A DNA stretch of 64,000 nt from Candidatus Poribacteria bacterium (GTDB taxonomy: Bacteria; Poribacteria; WGA-4E; PCPOR2b): positions 3,488,001 through 3,552,000 of the forward strand of contig OZ244042.1 of NCBI GenBank assembly GCA_965215015.1. Reading direction: 5' to 3'. Each line of letters begins with the position of its first letter. Position 1 is the first letter of the stretch. This document shows positions 2,615-37,144 of the stretch, piece by piece. A program made the position numbers and the translations under genes. The notes under the pieces were generated by a model, which saw only the letters and a program-made list of their open reading frames with translations, was not told where the DNA came from and did no database searches.

Positions 2615-3157
2615 TCAAGTCTCAGTCTTTGCTTGTCGAAGCAGCACCGTCCGCCCTAACACAATGACAGCAATTAAGAGCGCAACGACAGGACCGAACC
2701 AAGTATGTTCTTTTGGCGCGGTCAATATGAAAATATAGATAAATCCAAGCAGATACCATATCCTATCTAGCCACCCTTGCACTGACCGAGCAGCGAGATA
2801 CGTGCAAGCCAGCGTGCTAAACGCAATCCATATCCATGAGAATAACCCCGGGGTCCAGCCATAGAAAGGAATGCTTATAAGAGCAGCACCTTTCCAACCC
2901 TTTGGGAATAGATCAAAGGCGTGGTGGACAGCGAAACCGATACTGATACCCATCGCAAACGCGTGTAGTCCAAAGCGAATTCTTAATGCCAGTAAAAACA
3001 GTATAAGGGGAATCAGTGGACTGTGCGTGATGATGGAGCGGTGGAGTAGCAGGTTGGTCCATTGATCGATATCTGGCATGACGATGCCGCAGCGAAGCCC
3101 TGCTACAACGAATACCGGAGCTACCAAGGTAACTAGGAATCTACCCATCGCCTGCAT
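2615..3157 (-). CDS. Membrane protein, YdjM-like metal-dependent hydrolase
   Basis: PDID...HRSIITHS...HHAFD motifs and several TM segments. Confidence 0.6.
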   Translation of the reverse strand: MQAMGRFLVTLVAPVFVVAGLRCGIVMPDIDQWTNLLLHRSIITHSPLIPLILFLLALRIRFGLHAFAMGISIGFAVHHAFDLFPKGWKGAALISIPFYGWTPGLFSWIWIAFSTLACTYLAARSVQGWLDRIWYLLGFIYIFILTAPKEHTWFGPVVALLIAVIVLGRTVLLRQAKTET

Positions 3158-3178
3158 GTCAGTCCTCCTATTATGCTA

Positions 3179-4909
3179 TTATGCGGGTCTATCGCCCTTC
3201 TGCACCGGTGCGGTCCGGCTATCGACGCCGGGCAACATTTTTGCCGGATCTCGAGTCACAATCACGTCAATGATGGTGGGTATATCGTGTGCAGCGATGC
3301 CTTTGGCGAATGCTGCCCCTAGTTTGGAAGGTTCTGACACCCGAATACCGTGGCACCCGAGCTCACGAGCGACGTTTGCATAATGGGTTTCACTTAAATC
3401 GCTTGATTGATAGCGTCCGCCGTACAGACTGTGCTGGAGGGCCTTGACGTAGCCGGAGGCGGCGTTGTTCACGATGGCAAGGGTGAAACCGAGACCGAGA
3501 CGGCGCGCTGTCTCAAGTTCCCCAAGCATCATGTTGAATCCGGCATCGCCGGTAAGCCCGACCACCGGTGAATCTGGCGCAGCAAGCTGTGCACCGATAG
3601 TTCCCGGTAGCCCGTATCCGATGGAGGCGAATCCTCGATTTGCGATGTAGGAACGTCCCGCGCGGGTTGAGTCGTAGAGCAATCCAGTCCAATGGGCGGC
3701 AAATCCGCCATCAACGACAAGAATCCCGTCATCGGGCATGACGCCTTGCAGTTCGCGGACCAATCTCGCCATGTGAATTGGACGTTCTTCGGAGGCGTAG
3801 CGCGGTTCTGCCTCTGCCCGCCAAGCTGCCATTCGCTGTGCCACTTCCGCTAGGTAGGTTGTGTGTTGGGTCTGTAAGGTTTCGGCGTCGTTAGCAAGGC
3901 TAGCGTGGAGGTCGAGCAATCCTTCAGCGGCATCTCCCCAAAGCGCGACTTCCGTGGGGGTCGTGCGTCCAATTTCCTCCGCCACGATATCGAGATGGAT
4001 GAACGGAACACCCCGCGGCATTAGGGCGTAGCGTTTGGTGGCAATCTCGCCCATTTTGCAGCCGACTGCGAGGATGCAATCTGAAGTTTCGATTAGGTCG
4101 TTGGCAATCCGAGACCACCGACCGAATAGCCCTACACTCAGTGGATGTGTACACGGAATGGCACCCTTCCCGCTCAATGTCTGAGCAACCGGAACGCTGA
4201 AATCTTCGGCGAATTTGAGCAGTGCTTCATAGGCACCTGAGAGATGGATGCCACCTCCGGCGAGTATGATCGGTCGCTTGGAGCGACGGAACTGTGCTAT
4301 GGCTCGTGCAACCGCTTCGCGCCCCGGACGGGGCCGCTGGGCTGGGATGCGGATGGTTGCTGGATCGGCATAAAACTCATCGCTTGGGTAGTCAAATTCT
4401 CCATGTGCCACGTCTTCGGGGACATCCAGAACGACGGGGCCTGGTCGCCCGGAGGTGGCGATGGCGTAGGCACGTCGCACCAGTTCGGGGATGCGAAGCC
4501 CATCTTCGATCCGAATCAACGCCTTGACCGATGGGGCGAGAATCTCCGACTGGCGTGCCTCCTGGGTCATATTTTTCCAAGAATGGGCACGATTGCTGTT
4601 GCCAACGATAACGATGAGGGGCACCCCCGCATTCAACGACTCGACGAGTCCGGTCACTAAATTTGTGGCTCCCGGACCGAGCGTGGCGTCGCAGATACCG
4701 GGGCGTCCGGTCACTCGTGCCCATGCGTCGGCGGCGAACACACCGCACCGCTCGTCGTTGATGAGTGTATGTTTGAGCCCGAGTTCGCGCACTGCGTCGT
4801 AAAAGGGCAATAGCTGGAACCCAGCCATACCGAACATCGGGGCGGGGTTATGGCACTTGAGCATTTCGGCGAGCCCTTGTCCGCCGTTCATCTGTCGAAA
4901 TGAAGACAT
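3179..4909 (-). CDS. Thiamine pyrophosphate-binding protein, acetolactate synthase large-subunit-like
   Basis: GPGATN, SGRPGPVVLDVP, TPP motif GDAGF...NN. Confidence 0.9.
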   Translation of the reverse strand: MSSFRQMNGGQGLAEMLKCHNPAPMFGMAGFQLLPFYDAVRELGLKHTLINDERCGVFAADAWARVTGRPGICDATLGPGATNLVTGLVESLNAGVPLIVIVGNSNRAHSWKNMTQEARQSEILAPSVKALIRIEDGLRIPELVRRAYAIATSGRPGPVVLDVPEDVAHGEFDYPSDEFYADPATIRIPAQRPRPGREAVARAIAQFRRSKRPIILAGGGIHLSGAYEALLKFAEDFSVPVAQTLSGKGAIPCTHPLSVGLFGRWSRIANDLIETSDCILAVGCKMGEIATKRYALMPRGVPFIHLDIVAEEIGRTTPTEVALWGDAAEGLLDLHASLANDAETLQTQHTTYLAEVAQRMAAWRAEAEPRYASEERPIHMARLVRELQGVMPDDGILVVDGGFAAHWTGLLYDSTRAGRSYIANRGFASIGYGLPGTIGAQLAAPDSPVVGLTGDAGFNMMLGELETARRLGLGFTLAIVNNAASGYVKALQHSLYGGRYQSSDLSETHYANVARELGCHGIRVSEPSKLGAAFAKGIAAHDIPTIIDVIVTRDPAKMLPGVDSRTAPVQKGDRPA

Positions 4910-29104: not shown

Positions 29105-30214
29105 ATGATCGCGGCGCATACCGATGTCGTTGGAAGTTTGCTCCGTCCGCCTGAACTGCTCAAAGCGAGGAACGAGATTGCCGCGGGCAAAATGACGCCA
29201 GCGGCGTTCAAGGCTATCGAAGATCAAGCAGTTGATAAAGCTGTCGCCCTTCAGGAAGGGGTGGGCTTGGAGGTCGTTACCGATGGTGAAATGCGTCGGT
29301 TATCTTTCCAGAGCCAGATGACAGAAGCGGTCGCCGGTTTCGGTAAATATAACCTCAATGCCTTCCTCTGGGGTGATTGGCGCGGCGACGGAGGTGCGGG
29401 GAGCTTGAGTATAGAACGCCCCAAGGGTTTGGGTGTTGTCGGCAAGCTCAACCGCAAGCGTCATCTTTCAGGGGAAGAGTTCACCTACCTGCGAGCGCGG
29501 ACGACTCGCATACCGAAGATTACGTTGCCTAGTCCCAGCATGTGGACAAACTTCTGGTCGTCAGAGCACTCTCCGCCCGCCTATCCTACGCTCGAGAGTT
29601 TTCTTGTGGATGTCGTTGACCTTATACGGGGCGAGGTCGCCGAGTTGGTCCGACTGGGTGCAACCTACATTCAGCTGGATGCTCCCCATTATCCGTTGCT
29701 ACTCGATCCTAAGACTAGAGCTTTCTACGAAAGACAAGGCTGGGGGCTTGATCAGTGGCTGGACCGAGGCGTTGAGATGGACAACGCTGTGATTGGCGAT
29801 TTTTCAGATGTGACGTTTGGCTTTCACCTCTGACGCGGCAATCAGAGCAGCCGGTGGTTGGTCGAAGGAGGTTATGAGCTGATAGCCAAACCGATTTTCC
29901 AAGGCATCCGGGCCCAGCGTCTACTGCTTGAATACGATGACGAACGCTCCGGTTCATTTGAACCGTTGAAGGAGATTCCTGATGACAAGATTGTCGTTTT
30001 AGGGTTGGTTACGACGAAAACGCCACGCCGAGAAACGCCGGAAGCACTCACCGCACGCGTTAAGGAAGCCAGCCAATTTGTGCCGATAGAACGGCTTGCA
30101 TTGAGTCCACAGTGTGGCTTTTCAACTTCGGTTGTTGGCAATCGCATTACAGTAGAAGACCAGAGGCATAAGTTGTCGGTGGTTGTTGAGACTGCTAGAA
30201 GGGTGTGGGGCTAA
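29105..30214 (+). CDS. Cobalamin-independent methionine synthase II family (MetE C-terminal domain-like) protein; putative selenoprotein with Sec243 (TGA 29831-29833), 369 aa
   Basis: VVGSLLRP, VTDGEMRR, YIQLDAP, GFHL-[TGA]-RGN at the conserved HxC zinc ligand, LLLEYD, LSPQCGF; ORFs 29087..29833 and 29858..30214 are in the same frame. Confidence 0.88.
29834..29863 (+). promoter_or_regulatory. Putative bacterial SECIS of the MetE-like gene
   Basis: GA-G-CAGCC-(GGT)-GGTTG-G-TC hairpin; loop begins 19 nt after TGA and starts with G. Confidence 0.55.
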
Positions 30215-30222
30215 ACTGGGGA

Positions 30223-30314
30223 GACTCATGTTAAAGGAAAGTGTAAAACGCTAAGAGCTCCCAAGTTTTTCCGAAAAAATTCGGGAGCTGTTGCACGATT
30301 TCTTAACATGAGCC
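30223..30314 (+). mobile_element. Family A MITE-like element
   Basis: Aligns with 15277-15367 and 36010-36100. Confidence 0.7.
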
Positions 30315-30414
30315 ACTGGAGAAAACAGACAAGGTACACCTAGCATCAGATTAAATGGTGCTTTTTGAAGCGTACATTAAAAAACATGAATACGAGTTCA
30401 ATTGGAGGAAGGAT

Positions 30415-30621
30415 ATGGCGCAAACTCCTAAAAACCATCAAACCCGAACTGAATCTATTGGGAAATGGACAATTCGGATTAGATCTTACCAACTCGGTGA
30501 TGTGTATATCTGTACTGTAGACAATGTGAGCCCCGGTGCCGTCATTGCTCGATCTACGGCTGCAGCCCGCGCGGAGGCAGAATCCGAGGCGTTGGCGCAA
30601 GCGAAAGCCGCGATGGCATAA
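30415..30621 (+). CDS. Small hypothetical protein (68 aa) in the selenium cluster
   Basis: GGAGG/AGGA RBS then ATG 30415; SYQLGDVYICTVDNVSPGAVIAR. Confidence 0.7.
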   Translation: MAQTPKNHQTRTESIGKWTIRIRSYQLGDVYICTVDNVSPGAVIARSTAAARAEAESEALAQAKAAMA

Positions 30622-30745
30622 TCGCGTTATACGAAATTGGCTCATGGAAAAAGAAAGTGCAAAGCGCAAAGAGAAGCCGAGCCTTGCCGAAAAAACTCGG
30701 TTTTTGGTGTCTTTGTAGAAAGTAAGAAAAGTTGGGAGCGATAGG

Positions 30746-31807
30746 ATGAACCTAAATAAGTTGTCACGAAAACACACCCTCACAAGTCTGGCAAAAACAT
30801 GCGGGTGAGCGGCGAAGGTCAGTCCAGTTGGACTAGGAGAACTCTTGGCAAAATTGCCGAAGAAAAAGGACCCGAATCTGCTCGTTGGATTTGAAACGAG
30901 CGACGATGCCGGCATCTACCGCCTCGATGATGAAATGGCACTGGTTACGACCGCCGATTTTATCACGCCGCCGGTGGATGACCCGTATCTGTTTGGTCAG
31001 ATTGCTGCAGCCAATTCAATCAGTGATATTTATGCAATGGGCGGCAGACCTGTGACCTGTCTGAATCTGGTGGGGTTTCCGGCGGATAAATTGGGTCCAG
31101 AAATCCTGCACGGAATTGTCGAAGGCGCGTTGAGCAAAATCACCGAAGCCGGCGCAGTCTTGGCGGGCGGGCATACGACCGACGATGAGGAGCCCAAGTT
31201 TGGGTTATCGGTCACTGGGATTGTGCATCCGGAAAAATATTGGCGAAATGTCGGTGCGGAACCGGGGGATGTACTGATCTTGACCAAACCGATTGGCAGC
31301 GGCGTGATTTTTAACGCCAATCTGAAAAACTGGGTGTCAGACCAAGCGTTAGACGAATGTATACAGACTCTCACGATGCTCAACAAGCAGGCGGCGTCGG
31401 TTATGGCTGACTTTGACATCCATGCGGTAACGGACATCACCGGATTCGGATTGGGTGGGCATGCATTGGAAATGGCGGAAGGGTCGGTTGTGACTTTGGA
31501 AATTCACACCGACGCCGTGCCGATTATGCGCGAGGCACTAGAGATGTACCAAAAAGGGATGCGGACCGGTGTCAACGCCGCCAATCGAGCCTTGATTGAA
31601 GATTCCGCACGTTTTGAAAAATCGCTCCCTCCATGGCATGAGGAAATCTTCGTTGATCCGCAGACCAGCGGTGGATTGCTGATGTCTGTGCCGGCTGCTC
31701 AAAGCGAATCGCTGTTGACGGTTCTACACAATGGGGGTGTGGCAAAAGCACAGGTTATTGGAGTTGTGAAGTCCTTTGTCGAACCGAACTATCTTGTTTT
31801 TGTATAA
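30746..31807 (+). CDS. selD: Selenide, water dikinase (selenophosphate synthetase), selenocysteine-containing (Sec21, TGA 30806-30808), 353 aa
   Basis: ATG 30746 in frame: MNLNKLSRKHTLTSLAKTCG-U-AAKVSP...; SDDAG, TADFITP, GGHT, LTKPIG, TDITGFGL, DPQTSGGLL. Confidence 0.95.
30809..30834 (+). promoter_or_regulatory. Putative bacterial SECIS of selD
   Basis: AGTCC-(AGTT)-GGACT hairpin; loop 17 nt after TGA with GT at loop positions 2-3. Confidence 0.65.
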
Positions 31808-31810
31808 ACT

Positions 31811-32761
31811 ATGAAAATCTGCTTAATTACCCCCGCCCCGACATACTCTCGGAAGGGCAACCGCGTGACAGCCCTGCGTTGGGCTCATATCTTACGAGAA
31901 CTAGGCCACCGCGTCATTATCGTTCAAGAATATCAAGGAGAGCGATGCGACCTGTTAGTCGCGCTCCACGCGCGCCGCAGCCACGCTTCTATTGCGCGTT
32001 TCCGCGTTGAACATCCAGAGCTGCCTCTCATCCTTGCCCTGACCGGAACAGACCTCTACGGTGATATTCATACGGACGCCTCCGCCCAGGAATCTCTGGA
32101 GATGGCGGATCGTTTTATTCTTTTGCAACCCGCAGGCGTTGAAGAACTCTCCGAGCATCTGCGTGACAAAGCGTGGGTAATCTATCAATCAATAACGGCA
32201 CCACCGGGTAAATTTTCTCCAAAAAAAAACGTTTTTGAGTTGTGAGTGCTGGGGCATCTGCGTCCCGTGAAGGACCCATTTCGCACTGCGATAGCAGCCC
32301 GAGGGCTGCCTCCATCATCCCAGATTCAGGTAGTGCATGTTGGGGGTGCACTCACCAACGACATGAAAACCGAGGCAGATGCTGAAGCAGCCACCAATCC
32401 ACGTTACCGTTGGTTGGGTGAACTCCCACGCTGGCGGGCCCTCCGCGTCCTCGCACGGAGTCGGGTTCTCGTGCTGACCTCGCGAATGGAGGGAGGGGCG
32501 AATGTGGTTTCCGAGGCAATAGCGTGTTCCGTTCCCGTCATTTCGTCGCGGATATCTGGCTCGATCGGTCTCTTGGGAGAGGATTATCCGGGCTACTTCC
32601 CGGTAGGAGAGACACAGGCGTTGACGGAGCTGCTCATACGTGTTGAGACGGATACCGCTTTTTATAACACACTCAAAGCATGGTGCGAAAGATTAAAGCC
32701 GATTGTTAATCCTGACCGTGAACGTCAGAGTTGGAAACGTCTGCTGAAGGACTTACAGTAA
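31811..32761 (+). CDS. senB: SenB-like selenosugar synthase (GT-B glycosyltransferase, TIGR04348-like); putative selenoprotein with Sec145 (TGA 32243-32245), 316 aa
   Basis: GNRVTALRW, ALHARRS, LTGTDLY, FEL-[TGA]-VLGHLRPVKDP, SRMEGGANVVSEA, GLLGEDYPGYFPVG; starts 3 bp after selD; the two listed ORFs are contiguous and in frame. Confidence 0.85.
32246..32287 (+). promoter_or_regulatory. Putative bacterial SECIS of the senB-like gene
   Basis: GTCC-(CGTGAA)-GGAC hairpin with loop 20 nt after TGA and GT at loop positions 2-3; possible outer GTGC/GCAC stem. Confidence 0.55.
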
Positions 32762-33781: not shown

Positions 33782-33907
33782 AAACGGAAACACCGGTTGA
33801 GGTGCTATTATTGTCTGAATCACGGATTAAGCAGATGATGCGGAGGACACACGGACTTGCGCCGTTGACCTCTCGAGGCCTTGTCGGTCTATACTCATAT
33901 CTCGACA

Positions 33908-34210
33908 ATGATTAAATATACCCCATTGACCCTTGATGAAATTCCCGAAGATGAGCAGGAAGCACTCCTCACAAAGGTTGCCACGGAGATTGTGAAACGA
34001 CGCCTGACTGTGCCTGCGATTTTATTCTTGGAAACTTGTAAACCGATCAACTTTATCGGCAGTCAAATGCTTATTGCGCTCAACCCTTTTGTAACTTCAA
34101 TTTTTAACACCGCCGAATATCAAAAATTTGCCTTGATCATTGAAAAAGACGCAAACGTTGAGTTGCTGACTCAACTCATTGAGAAATTAGACGGAGAGGA
34201 GAAAGAATAG
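33908..34210 (+). CDS. Hypothetical protein translationally coupled to the GlmL-like gene
   Basis: ORF ending 1 bp before the next start; PAILFLETCKPINFIGSQ. Confidence 0.75.
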   Translation: MIKYTPLTLDEIPEDEQEALLTKVATEIVKRRLTVPAILFLETCKPINFIGSQMLIALNPFVTSIFNTAEYQKFALIIEKDANVELLTQLIEKLDGEEKE

Positions 34211-36160: not shown

Positions 36161-37144
36161 GTGGCATCAAGGCAGATTAATCTTTTCGACCGCGTCATGA
36201 AAATCTTGGGACGGCATTACGCGGAATCGTTTCTGAAACTTGCTTTTCCCGATACCATTTTCCAACTGGTCGGAACGCTGGAAAATGTCGAAATCACCCT
36301 ACCAGATCGGCGCGTTGACTTTCTCCATAGACTTCAGTTCGGAGGGGAGGAATATTTGCTCCACTTTGAGTTTCAACTTCAACATAGGACTGATTATCCC
36401 CGCAATGTTTTTACTTTTTCAGGTGGACTGACGGATCAACATCAGAGGCCAACAATTACTATCGTTTTGTATCTAGAGCGGCGAGAGTCGGACCCACCTA
36501 GTGAATATGTCGTTCAAATCGGGGAATGGGTTATCCACCGGTTCACCTATCCGATCCTAAAGCTATGGGATTATACAGACCGTATCCGTTCTGGAGAGTT
36601 AAGAGAGTTTGCGCCGTTACTGATTATGTTGGAACCAGAGAAGACGGAAGCGGTACTGCATCAAGAAAGGGAACTAATTTTGCAGGAAACCCATCCGCAG
36701 AAACGAGCGGATTCATTGGCAACAGCGGTGATGATCGCGTCCCGCTATTTTGACCTTAATTGGTTGTGGGACTTTTTTGGAGAGGAGGTGGAACAGATGC
36801 GCCAATCTGGTTTTATCACTGACTGGATCGAGGATGGCATCCAGCGAGGACTCCAGCAAGGGCTAGAGCAAGGGCTAGAGCAAGGGCTAGAGCAAGGGCT
36901 AGAGCAAGGGCTAGAGCAAGGGCTAGAGCAAGGACTGGAGCAGGGACTGGAGCAAGGACTCCAGCAAGGGAAGCGGTTACTCCTAATCCAGCAGCTTATG
37001 GCAAAATTTGGGGCACTGCCTGAATCCGTAACGGATCAAATTCAGGGGATGACCGTGGATGAAGAACTGGATCAGCTAGGGGTTCGTCTCTTGACAGCAG
37101 AAACCCTTGAAGAGATGGGGCTTGATGGTAGAGGGTCTCATTGA
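36161..37144 (+). CDS. Rpn/YhgA-like PD-(D/E)XK nuclease with GLEQ repeats and a DUF4351-like tail
   Basis: RRVDFL...LLHFEFQ, (GLEQ)n, QQLMAKFGALP...LLTAETLEE. Confidence 0.8.
   Translation: MASRQINLFDRVMKILGRHYAESFLKLAFPDTIFQLVGTLENVEITLPDRRVDFLHRLQFGGEEYLLHFEFQLQHRTDYPRNVFTFSGGLTDQHQRPTITIVLYLERRESDPPSEYVVQIGEWVIHRFTYPILKLWDYTDRIRSGELREFAPLLIMLEPEKTEAVLHQERELILQETHPQKRADSLATAVMIASRYFDLNWLWDFFGEEVEQMRQSGFITDWIEDGIQRGLQQGLEQGLEQGLEQGLEQGLEQGLEQGLEQGLEQGLQQGKRLLLIQQLMAKFGALPESVTDQIQGMTVDEELDQLGVRLLTAETLEEMGLDGRGSH
36797..37144 (+). CDS. Putative internally initiated small protein (Rpn-S-like antitoxin), 115 aa
   Basis: In-frame ATG 36797 preceded by GAGGAGG at 36782-36788. Confidence 0.6.
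   Translation: MRQSGFITDWIEDGIQRGLQQGLEQGLEQGLEQGLEQGLEQGLEQGLEQGLEQGLQQGKRLLLIQQLMAKFGALPESVTDQIQGMTVDEELDQLGVRLLTAETLEEMGLDGRGSH
36848..36967 (+). repeat. 12-bp coding tandem repeat x10 (GGGCTAGAGCAA core) encoding GL(E/Q)Q
   Basis: Six identical and four variant units. Confidence 0.95.

Follow-up and report, generated by a model that had tools for sequence, protein, structure and literature searches.

The stretch of DNA analyzed here, referred to as the window, comprises 64,000 nucleotides of the genome of a Candidatus Poribacteria bacterium (contig OZ244042.1 of assembly GCA_965215015.1, positions 3,488,001 to 3,552,000); Poribacteria are sponge symbionts. The gene of interest, senB, lies on the forward strand at 31811–32761 and encodes a selenosugar synthase, a glycosyltransferase of the GT-B/GT4 type. 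Its frame of 316 codons runs from an ATG at 31811 to a TAA at 32759–32761 and is open apart from a single in-frame TGA at codon 145 (32243–32245, forward strand), the proposed selenocysteine (Sec) codon, at a column that holds TGA, Cys or Ser in orthologs. Comparison with these orthologs indicates that the TGA is very probably a Sec codon. The surrounding codons are GTT TTT GAG TTG TGA GTG CTG GGG CAT CTG CGT CCC GTG AAG GAC CCA, which lie within the reading KNVFEL-TGA-VLGHLRPVKDPFRT. The initial annotation of the locus had described a SenB-like enzyme that may itself be a selenoprotein, with both halves intact around FEL-TGA-VLGHLRPVKDP; the sequence was found to be exact and the frame otherwise open.

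The read-through product matched TIGR04348 ("selenoneine biosynthesis selenosugar synthase SenB") with 405.4 bits, above the cut-off of 300, over model positions 1–309 of 310, which bears out the SenB-like identity proposed at first. A Pfam match to Glycos_transf_1 was also present, and the Variovorax SenB chains were matched at E = 1e-55; a query of 50 residues had given no match among the PDB sequences, and the full-length protein was then used. The AlphaFold2 (AF2) model of the product had a predicted local distance difference test (pLDDT) score of 95.9, and its Foldseek superposition on chains 8rz3_B and 8jjn_A gave a template modeling (TM) score of 0.93 with a root-mean-square deviation (rmsd) of 2.0 Å. 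The accessible text of PMC10891094 lists N20, H58, R61, T83, T85 and R155 as the selenophosphate pocket of the Variovorax paradoxus enzyme (VpSenB), with K158 as the catalytic residue. By alignment, all of these are identical in the window protein (N17, H53, R56, T78, T80, R151 and K154), K154 being the counterpart of catalytic K158. The GHLRxxK motif, named at the outset as typical of SenB and located right after the TGA, proved to be a family-wide feature, with R151 and K154 each found in 149 of 150 cluster representatives. The EGGAHV motif of SenB reads EGGANV in the window protein (H to N), while E227 is identical. As judged from its sequence, the gene is a genuine senB, whose product is predicted to make a selenosugar out of selenophosphate and a UDP-sugar.

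Codon 145 and the downstream hairpin in orthologs

A survey of 176 Poribacteria genomes revealed SenB at E ≤ 1e-40 in 45, and exactly one internal TGA was present in 10 of these 45 matches, the window's included. Codon 145 was read in 40 full-length orthologs, leaving out G070–G072 and two partial genes at contig ends (G048 and G019), and none of these five had internal stops. The codon was TGA in 10 orthologs, Cys in 27 and Ser in 3 (L020, L030 and L038), with the TGA genes spread over six genera in two families; in G022 it was TCA, a single step from TGA. A tree forcing the 10 TGA genes into one clade was rejected by the approximately unbiased (AU) test (p-AU = 3e-10), and Sec, Cys and Ser have therefore been exchanged several times at this codon, with six changes under parsimony. 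In pairs of TGA genes other than the window's, the ratio of nonsynonymous to synonymous substitution rates (dN/dS) after the TGA was 0.11–0.18, equal to that of the half before it; the post-TGA half is thus subject to purifying selection and is translated. No alignment column separated the TGA genes from the Cys genes, and no Cys co-varying with Cys145, as a possible redox partner, was found. Upstream of the TGA, the Phe codon 142 (32234–32236) was TTT in all 10 TGA genes vs. TTC in 15 of the 27 Cys genes, which may be a context effect or may reflect common ancestry.

The initial annotation had placed Cys at this position in some homologs, and of the 120 homologs nearest in the databases, 119 indeed had Cys and one had Ser. 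Across 150 representatives of clusters at 50% identity, the column was more variable, with C in 74, A in 22, L in 17, V in 15, S in 7, T in 7, G in 3 and I in 2. Among 80 genome loci from many phyla it held C in 58, A in 8, V in 8, T in 2 and TGA in 4, the last being Poribacteria genes already included in the count of 10. Among 80 metagenome loci it held C in 68, S in 7 (L164, L171, L174, L176, L187, L205 and L206), A in 3, V in 1 and TGA in 1; this single TGA locus agreed with L032 across the 39 nt compared and may represent the same lineage. No new TGA case outside Poribacteria-like sequences was found in these two sets. Among the Poribacteria orthologs the column is mostly Cys, with TGA in nine other genomes, unlike the pattern that the initial annotation tied to a nonsense mutation, a non-Cys residue with TGA nowhere else.

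The hairpin noted initially, GTCC-CGTGAA-GGAC, was present on the forward strand at 32262–32275, with GTCC at 32262–32265, the loop CGTGAA at 32266–32271 and GGAC at 32272–32275. It spans codons R151-P-V-K154-D155, and its stem begins 16 nt and its loop 20 nt past the TGA. RNAalifold applied to the 10 TGA genes retained solely this hairpin (GUCC-CGUGAA-GGAC), which resembles a SECIS (selenocysteine insertion sequence) core; a lower stem extending it was considered and rejected, as it was not conserved among the 10 genes. Codons 151–155 read CGT CCC GTG AAG GAC in all 10, except for one GAT that keeps the pairing as G-U. The pairwise synonymous difference was scanned in each five-codon window of senB. 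In the TGA genes, codons 151–155 had a value of 0.04 against a gene median of 0.59, ranking first of 200 as the most conserved, whereas in the 27 Cys genes the value was 0.405 against a median of 0.459 (rank 50 of 238). The hairpin codons are therefore synonymously constrained in the TGA genes only, and it is this comparison among orthologs, not stability, that gives the hairpin its significance.

According to the available text of the selenoproteome review PMC13188914, bacterial SECIS elements (bSECIS) have a loop of 3–9 nt, an upper stem of 4–16 bp, a G among the first two nucleotides of the loop, a distance of 16–37 nt from UGA to loop and a minimum free energy no higher than −7.5 kcal/mol. 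The senB hairpin fits this geometry, with a 6-nt loop, a 4-bp stem, GU as the second and third loop nucleotides, and a spacing of 20 nt. The energy limit was reached only with flanking sequence included, and not in every gene. When the core was enforced in 48 nt, energies of −6.0 to −12.2 kcal/mol were obtained (−12.2 for the window's gene), and seven of the 10 TGA genes reached −7.5. No Rfam model reached its gathering threshold anywhere in the window, and the matches at 29700–32500 were no better than chance. The pattern TGA-N9-21-GTCC-N-GT-N1-3-GGAY had 18 matches genome-wide, with no further selenoprotein genes among them, and only those in senB and in the neighbouring selD had long open frames on both sides; control trinucleotides in place of TGA gave 3–16 matches.

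A further explanation is that the gene is split, with the TGA ending a protein made of the N-terminal domain and the next codon, a GTG, starting a separate C-terminal domain protein. An ORF of 171 residues does begin at this GTG (32246). Codon 146, however, is GTG in six of the 10 TGA genes and GTA or GTC in the other four, so that the restart is not conserved; the cut would also fall within the β-strand formed by residues 142–147, and the synonymous constraint on codons 151–155 would be left without a reason. A split gene is thus very improbable. None of the 10 TGA genes equaled any of the 270 full-length database proteins compared, the best identity being 0.92, to a Cys form, and this absence fits with gene callers splitting senB at the TGA.

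Neighbouring genes and the selenium genes of the genome

Immediately upstream of senB, at 30746–31807 on the forward strand, lies selD, which encodes a selenophosphate synthetase (TIGR00476, 375 bits vs. a cut-off of 125) and takes the role of senC; its stop and the senB ATG are 3 nt apart. This gene has its own Sec codon at 30806–30808, an in-frame TGA in the catalytic GUxxK loop within the motif KTCGUAAK, and the column was TGA in all 22 related loci with a visible N-terminus. A SECIS hairpin, AGUCC-AGUU-GGACU (30821–30834, forward strand), starts 12 nt past this UGA and was kept in all 22 loci, taking the form AGUCC-GGUC-GGACU in the three loci of family f4. The GUCC/GGAC stem and a loop starting with xGU are common to the selD SECIS and the senB hairpin. 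Five SenB homologs (P0127, P0128, P0138, P0173 and P0176) were 568–667 residues long with the SenB portion N-terminal, and may be SenB-SelD fusions.

Farther upstream, at 29105–30214 on the forward strand, is a MetE-like gene of the cobalamin-independent methionine synthase family (NF005085, 235 bits, below the cut-off). It contains an in-frame TGA at 29831–29833 (FGFHL-U-RGN), at a site that we take to be the zinc-binding Cys of the H-x-C-x-G-N motif. The gene was found in 22 of 41 related genomes, with TGA in all 22 (two TGAs in one of them), and a possible hairpin, CAGCC-GGU-GGUUG, lies 14 nt past the TGA. No mention of MetE, methionine synthase, homocysteine or PF01717 was found in the available text of PMC13188914. 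With the TGAs of the MetE-like gene, selD and senB, there are therefore three Sec genes within 3.7 kb. An ORF of 88 residues (30355–30621, forward strand) sits between the MetE-like gene and selD; neither this ORF nor one of 109 residues at 33881–34210 (forward strand) had an NCBIfam match.

The same genome contains, in a cluster, selA (609.8 bits), selB (371 bits) and a tRNA-Sec with the anticodon TCA (76.5 bits), and with selD the Sec machinery (selA, selB, selC and selD) is complete as judged from these model matches. SenA (NF041186, 516.6 bits vs. a cut-off of 420) and EgtD (TIGR03438, 365.8 bits vs. 290.9) are also encoded, side by side at G000:C1:3301103-3305356 (L047, ORFs at locus positions 1471–2766 and 2788–3858), about 215 kb from senB, so that the selenoneine genes are divided between two loci. 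An apparent further Sec candidate, an FGE-sulfatase with one TGA, was rejected, as this FGE-sulfatase/EgtB-like gene (G000:C1:1341030-1341670) is actually frameshifted (frames 0 and 2), either as a pseudogene or through an assembly indel error. Elsewhere in the window, an ORF of 327 residues (36161–37144, forward strand) has about ten GLEQ/GLQQ tetrapeptide repeats near its C-terminus.

Probable decoding of the UGA as Sec and the window's own copy

These comparisons make it likely that UGA145 of senB is decoded as Sec by SelB and Sec-tRNA(Sec), guided by a minimal SECIS hairpin that the RPVKD codons encode. The selenoprotein proposal of the initial annotation is supported by the recurrence of TGA at this column in 10 of 40 orthologs, with Cys in 27, by the constraint on the hairpin in TGA genes only and by the complete Sec machinery, and the TGA of senB is a real feature that probably marks a selenoprotein family not described before, one that uses the usual Sec system of bacteria. 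SelB with Sec-tRNA(Sec) would read the UGA, and the SECIS would be built from codons of the catalytic-loop motif R-P-V-K-D, 16 nt further on. The selD-senB pair would supply selenophosphate and then turn it into selenosugar, while SenA and EgtD, encoded elsewhere, would complete the selenoneine pathway. In cells lacking Sec-tRNA(Sec), translation would stop at the UGA and leave a fragment of 144 residues, the N-terminal domain. The main effect of Sec145 would then be that full-length SenB depends on the supply of Sec-tRNA. The repeated exchange of Sec, Cys and Ser in this lineage would also be explained by a hairpin that is already present in the codons of a conserved peptide motif.

Several observations weigh against decoding as Sec. 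The 4-bp stem is at the lower limit of the bSECIS range, and the core hairpin alone has an energy of −4.6 kcal/mol (−2.8 in L021). Only three of the 10 TGA genes include the core in their unconstrained minimum-energy fold, and the 86-nt region around the TGA folds no better than shuffled sequences (z = −0.99). The core hairpin also occurs in 16 of the 27 Cys genes and in all three Ser genes; as a structure that the codons for RPVKD tend to form, it is in part a by-product of this conserved peptide, and finding it in the window's gene alone is little proof. The column takes C, A, L, V, S or T across the family and is Val or Leu in active enzymes, and because Val, Leu, Ala, Ser and Thr are tolerated, Sec would be there without an evident chemical job. 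In the genus of the window's bacterium, TGA was found in none of the 19 other genomes; 18 had Cys, and the nineteenth (G019) had a partial match without a stop. Finally, the window's gene and that of a divergent strain (run X6) differ after the TGA by five synonymous and five nonsynonymous changes, compared with 13 and three before it, a hint of relaxation after the TGA, based on small numbers.

The last two observations bear on whether the TGA of this genome is a plain nonsense mutation that cuts SenB after 144 residues and makes the gene a young pseudogene, even if other Poribacteria insert Sec. The best gene trees join the window's gene to a Cys gene (support 96/92 and 98/98), and the hairpin is not peculiar to the window's gene, since 10 of the 18 Cys genes in the genus also have it. 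Contigs from four sequencing runs, which belong to four studies, nevertheless all kept the TGA. Run X1, which may be the source sample, and run X5 had no differences, X8 had two differences nearby, and X6, the divergent strain, had 30 differences over 1201 nt (2.5%). Neither strain has a stop or an indel in the 171 codons downstream of the TGA, and dN/dS after the TGA between the window's gene and those of the genus was 0.13, vs. 0.12 for Cys-Cys pairs. Each of the five replacements between the window and X6 affects a column with variation across the 40 Poribacteria orthologs; four yield residues present in these orthologs (e.g., Q at 225, the majority residue), and T187A, the fifth, yields Ala, a frequent residue in the wider family. 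The window's gene has a hairpin identical to that of the nine other TGA genes, and both the Sec machinery and the two Sec genes next to senB are intact. Moreover, a position of the window's gene apart from the Cys genes of its genus was not rejected by the AU test (p = 0.25 and 0.17), and codon 145 in the sister genus is TCA, a single step from TGA; the TGA of the window may thus be ancestral. A nonsense mutation is accordingly considered unlikely. An interpretation of the window's TGA as a secondary reversal from Cys to Sec, suggested by the tree position, was dropped as unproven after the AU tests and in view of the TCA in the sister genus.

It is extremely improbable that the TGA results from a sequencing or assembly error, or from a genome-wide reassignment of TGA. 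One other gene of the assembly is frameshifted, as described above, but the contigs of all four runs carry the same base at this position. TGA is an ordinary stop in this genome, ending 13 of 34 long frames in the window, and its recurrence in nine other genomes is specific to one position of senB.

Role of residue 145 and relation to known systems

In the AF2 model, residue 145 is located in the middle of the strand 142–147, the first strand of the C-terminal Rossmann domain, three residues before G148-H149 and nine before K154. By alignment, VpSenB has Val and RsSenB has Leu at this column, and both enzymes are reported to be active in the accessible text of PMC10891094. V149, the VpSenB counterpart of residue 145, and the next residues M150, V151, G152 and H153 were not found among the ligand contacts given in the accessible parts of the SenB structure papers, and lie outside the listed pocket and catalytic set. 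A catalytic role of Sec145, as suggested initially, is unlikely, judging from alignment and model, because Val or Leu takes its place in the SenBs with biochemical activity, three Poribacteria have Ser and the residue is mid-strand; Sec145 would not be required for glycosyl transfer.

Selection for reactivity could take a different form, in which Sec145 or Cys145 carries selenium or the selenosugar as a Se-Se or Se-S adduct, or protects the active site. Such a chemical role would agree with Cys in the nearest homologs across several phyla, with the trio of Cys, Sec and Ser, which is the pattern of a chalcogen position, and with the short distance to the GH pair and the catalytic Lys. The Val and Leu of the active enzymes, the range of residues across the family, the mid-strand location and the lack of a co-varying partner Cys argue against it, and we regard this role as rather doubtful.

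The second role put forward in the initial annotation, a selenium-dependent translational switch, is conceivable. Retention of the UGA for regulation, not chemistry, may be proposed only tentatively, with the UGA of senB as a selenium overflow valve. Selenophosphate would be divided between SelA, for Sec-tRNA, and SenB, for the selenosugar leading to selenoneine; SenB would be finished only when Sec-tRNA(Sec) is plentiful, and selenium would go to the small molecule after the selenoproteome has been served. If true, this would be a case of Sec with a regulatory function, in a non-redox enzyme and at a structurally neutral position. A near-neutral exchange of Cys and Sec, eased by the pre-existing hairpin, also remains as an explanation.

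The enzymes of V. paradoxus, RsSenB and CbSenB are characterised Se-glycosyltransferases (PDB 8FBX, 8JJN, 8JJQ, 8JJT, 8RZ3 and 8K5U). The window's senB resembles them in its family model, fold (TM 0.93), pocket and catalytic residues, and selD/senC neighbour, but differs in having TGA where they have Val or Leu, and in that senA of its genome is not adjacent but lies about 215 kb away next to egtD. The closest parallel at the locus itself is SelD, encoded 3 nt upstream, also an enzyme of the selenium pathway that itself needs Sec-tRNA, with a UGA followed by a short hairpin of GUCC/GGAC stem and xGU loop. Sec in SelD, however, is the catalytic residue of an N-terminal loop (GUxxK), as stated in the accessible text of PMC13188914, whereas in SenB it would be mid-strand at a substitution-tolerant site. 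Like the bacterial selenoproteins with bSECIS covered in that text, senB has an in-frame UGA opposite Cys, TGA homologs elsewhere and a stem-loop within the gene; unlike most of the families described there, which resemble thiol oxidoreductases (UxxC-type), it encodes a glycosyltransferase without a nearby Cys partner. A precedent for coupling expression to selenium through passage of the ribosome over a Sec codon is fdhF(Sec) of Treponema primitia, controlled by translation across its SECIS as described in the accessible text of PMC3892789. In that case, Sec is catalytic in a formate dehydrogenase, and transcription was the level at which the selenium effect was measured.

No statement on a Sec-containing SenB was found in the open literature searched, a search that excluded subscription journals and supplementary tables. 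The accessible parts of three SenB structure papers and of the bioRxiv discovery paper contain general mentions of selenocysteine only. The selenoproteome review PMC13188914, including its family table, has no entry for SenB, glycosyl, selenosugar, PF00534 or PF13692, and a text search of the deep-Sep paper gave 0 matches.

To our knowledge, very few enzymes create carbon-selenium bonds; SenB is one of them, and it catalyzes the first step of the sole selenoneine route characterised so far. A selenoprotein form of SenB in nature would bring a glycosyltransferase into a catalogue dominated by selenoproteins that resemble thiol oxidoreductases, and it would be unusual in having Sec at a non-catalytic, substitution-tolerant site of an enzyme that handles selenium. 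Because Val, Leu, Ala and Ser also serve at this position, it would be an unusually clean case in which to test the old question of whether Sec is ever retained for reasons outside catalysis, for instance to tie translation to selenium status. It also shows how the codons of a conserved peptide can hold a SECIS in advance, a single base change then being enough to switch Cys to Sec. Since gene callers split the senB genes with TGA, the selenoneine capacity of sponge symbionts is likely under-annotated.

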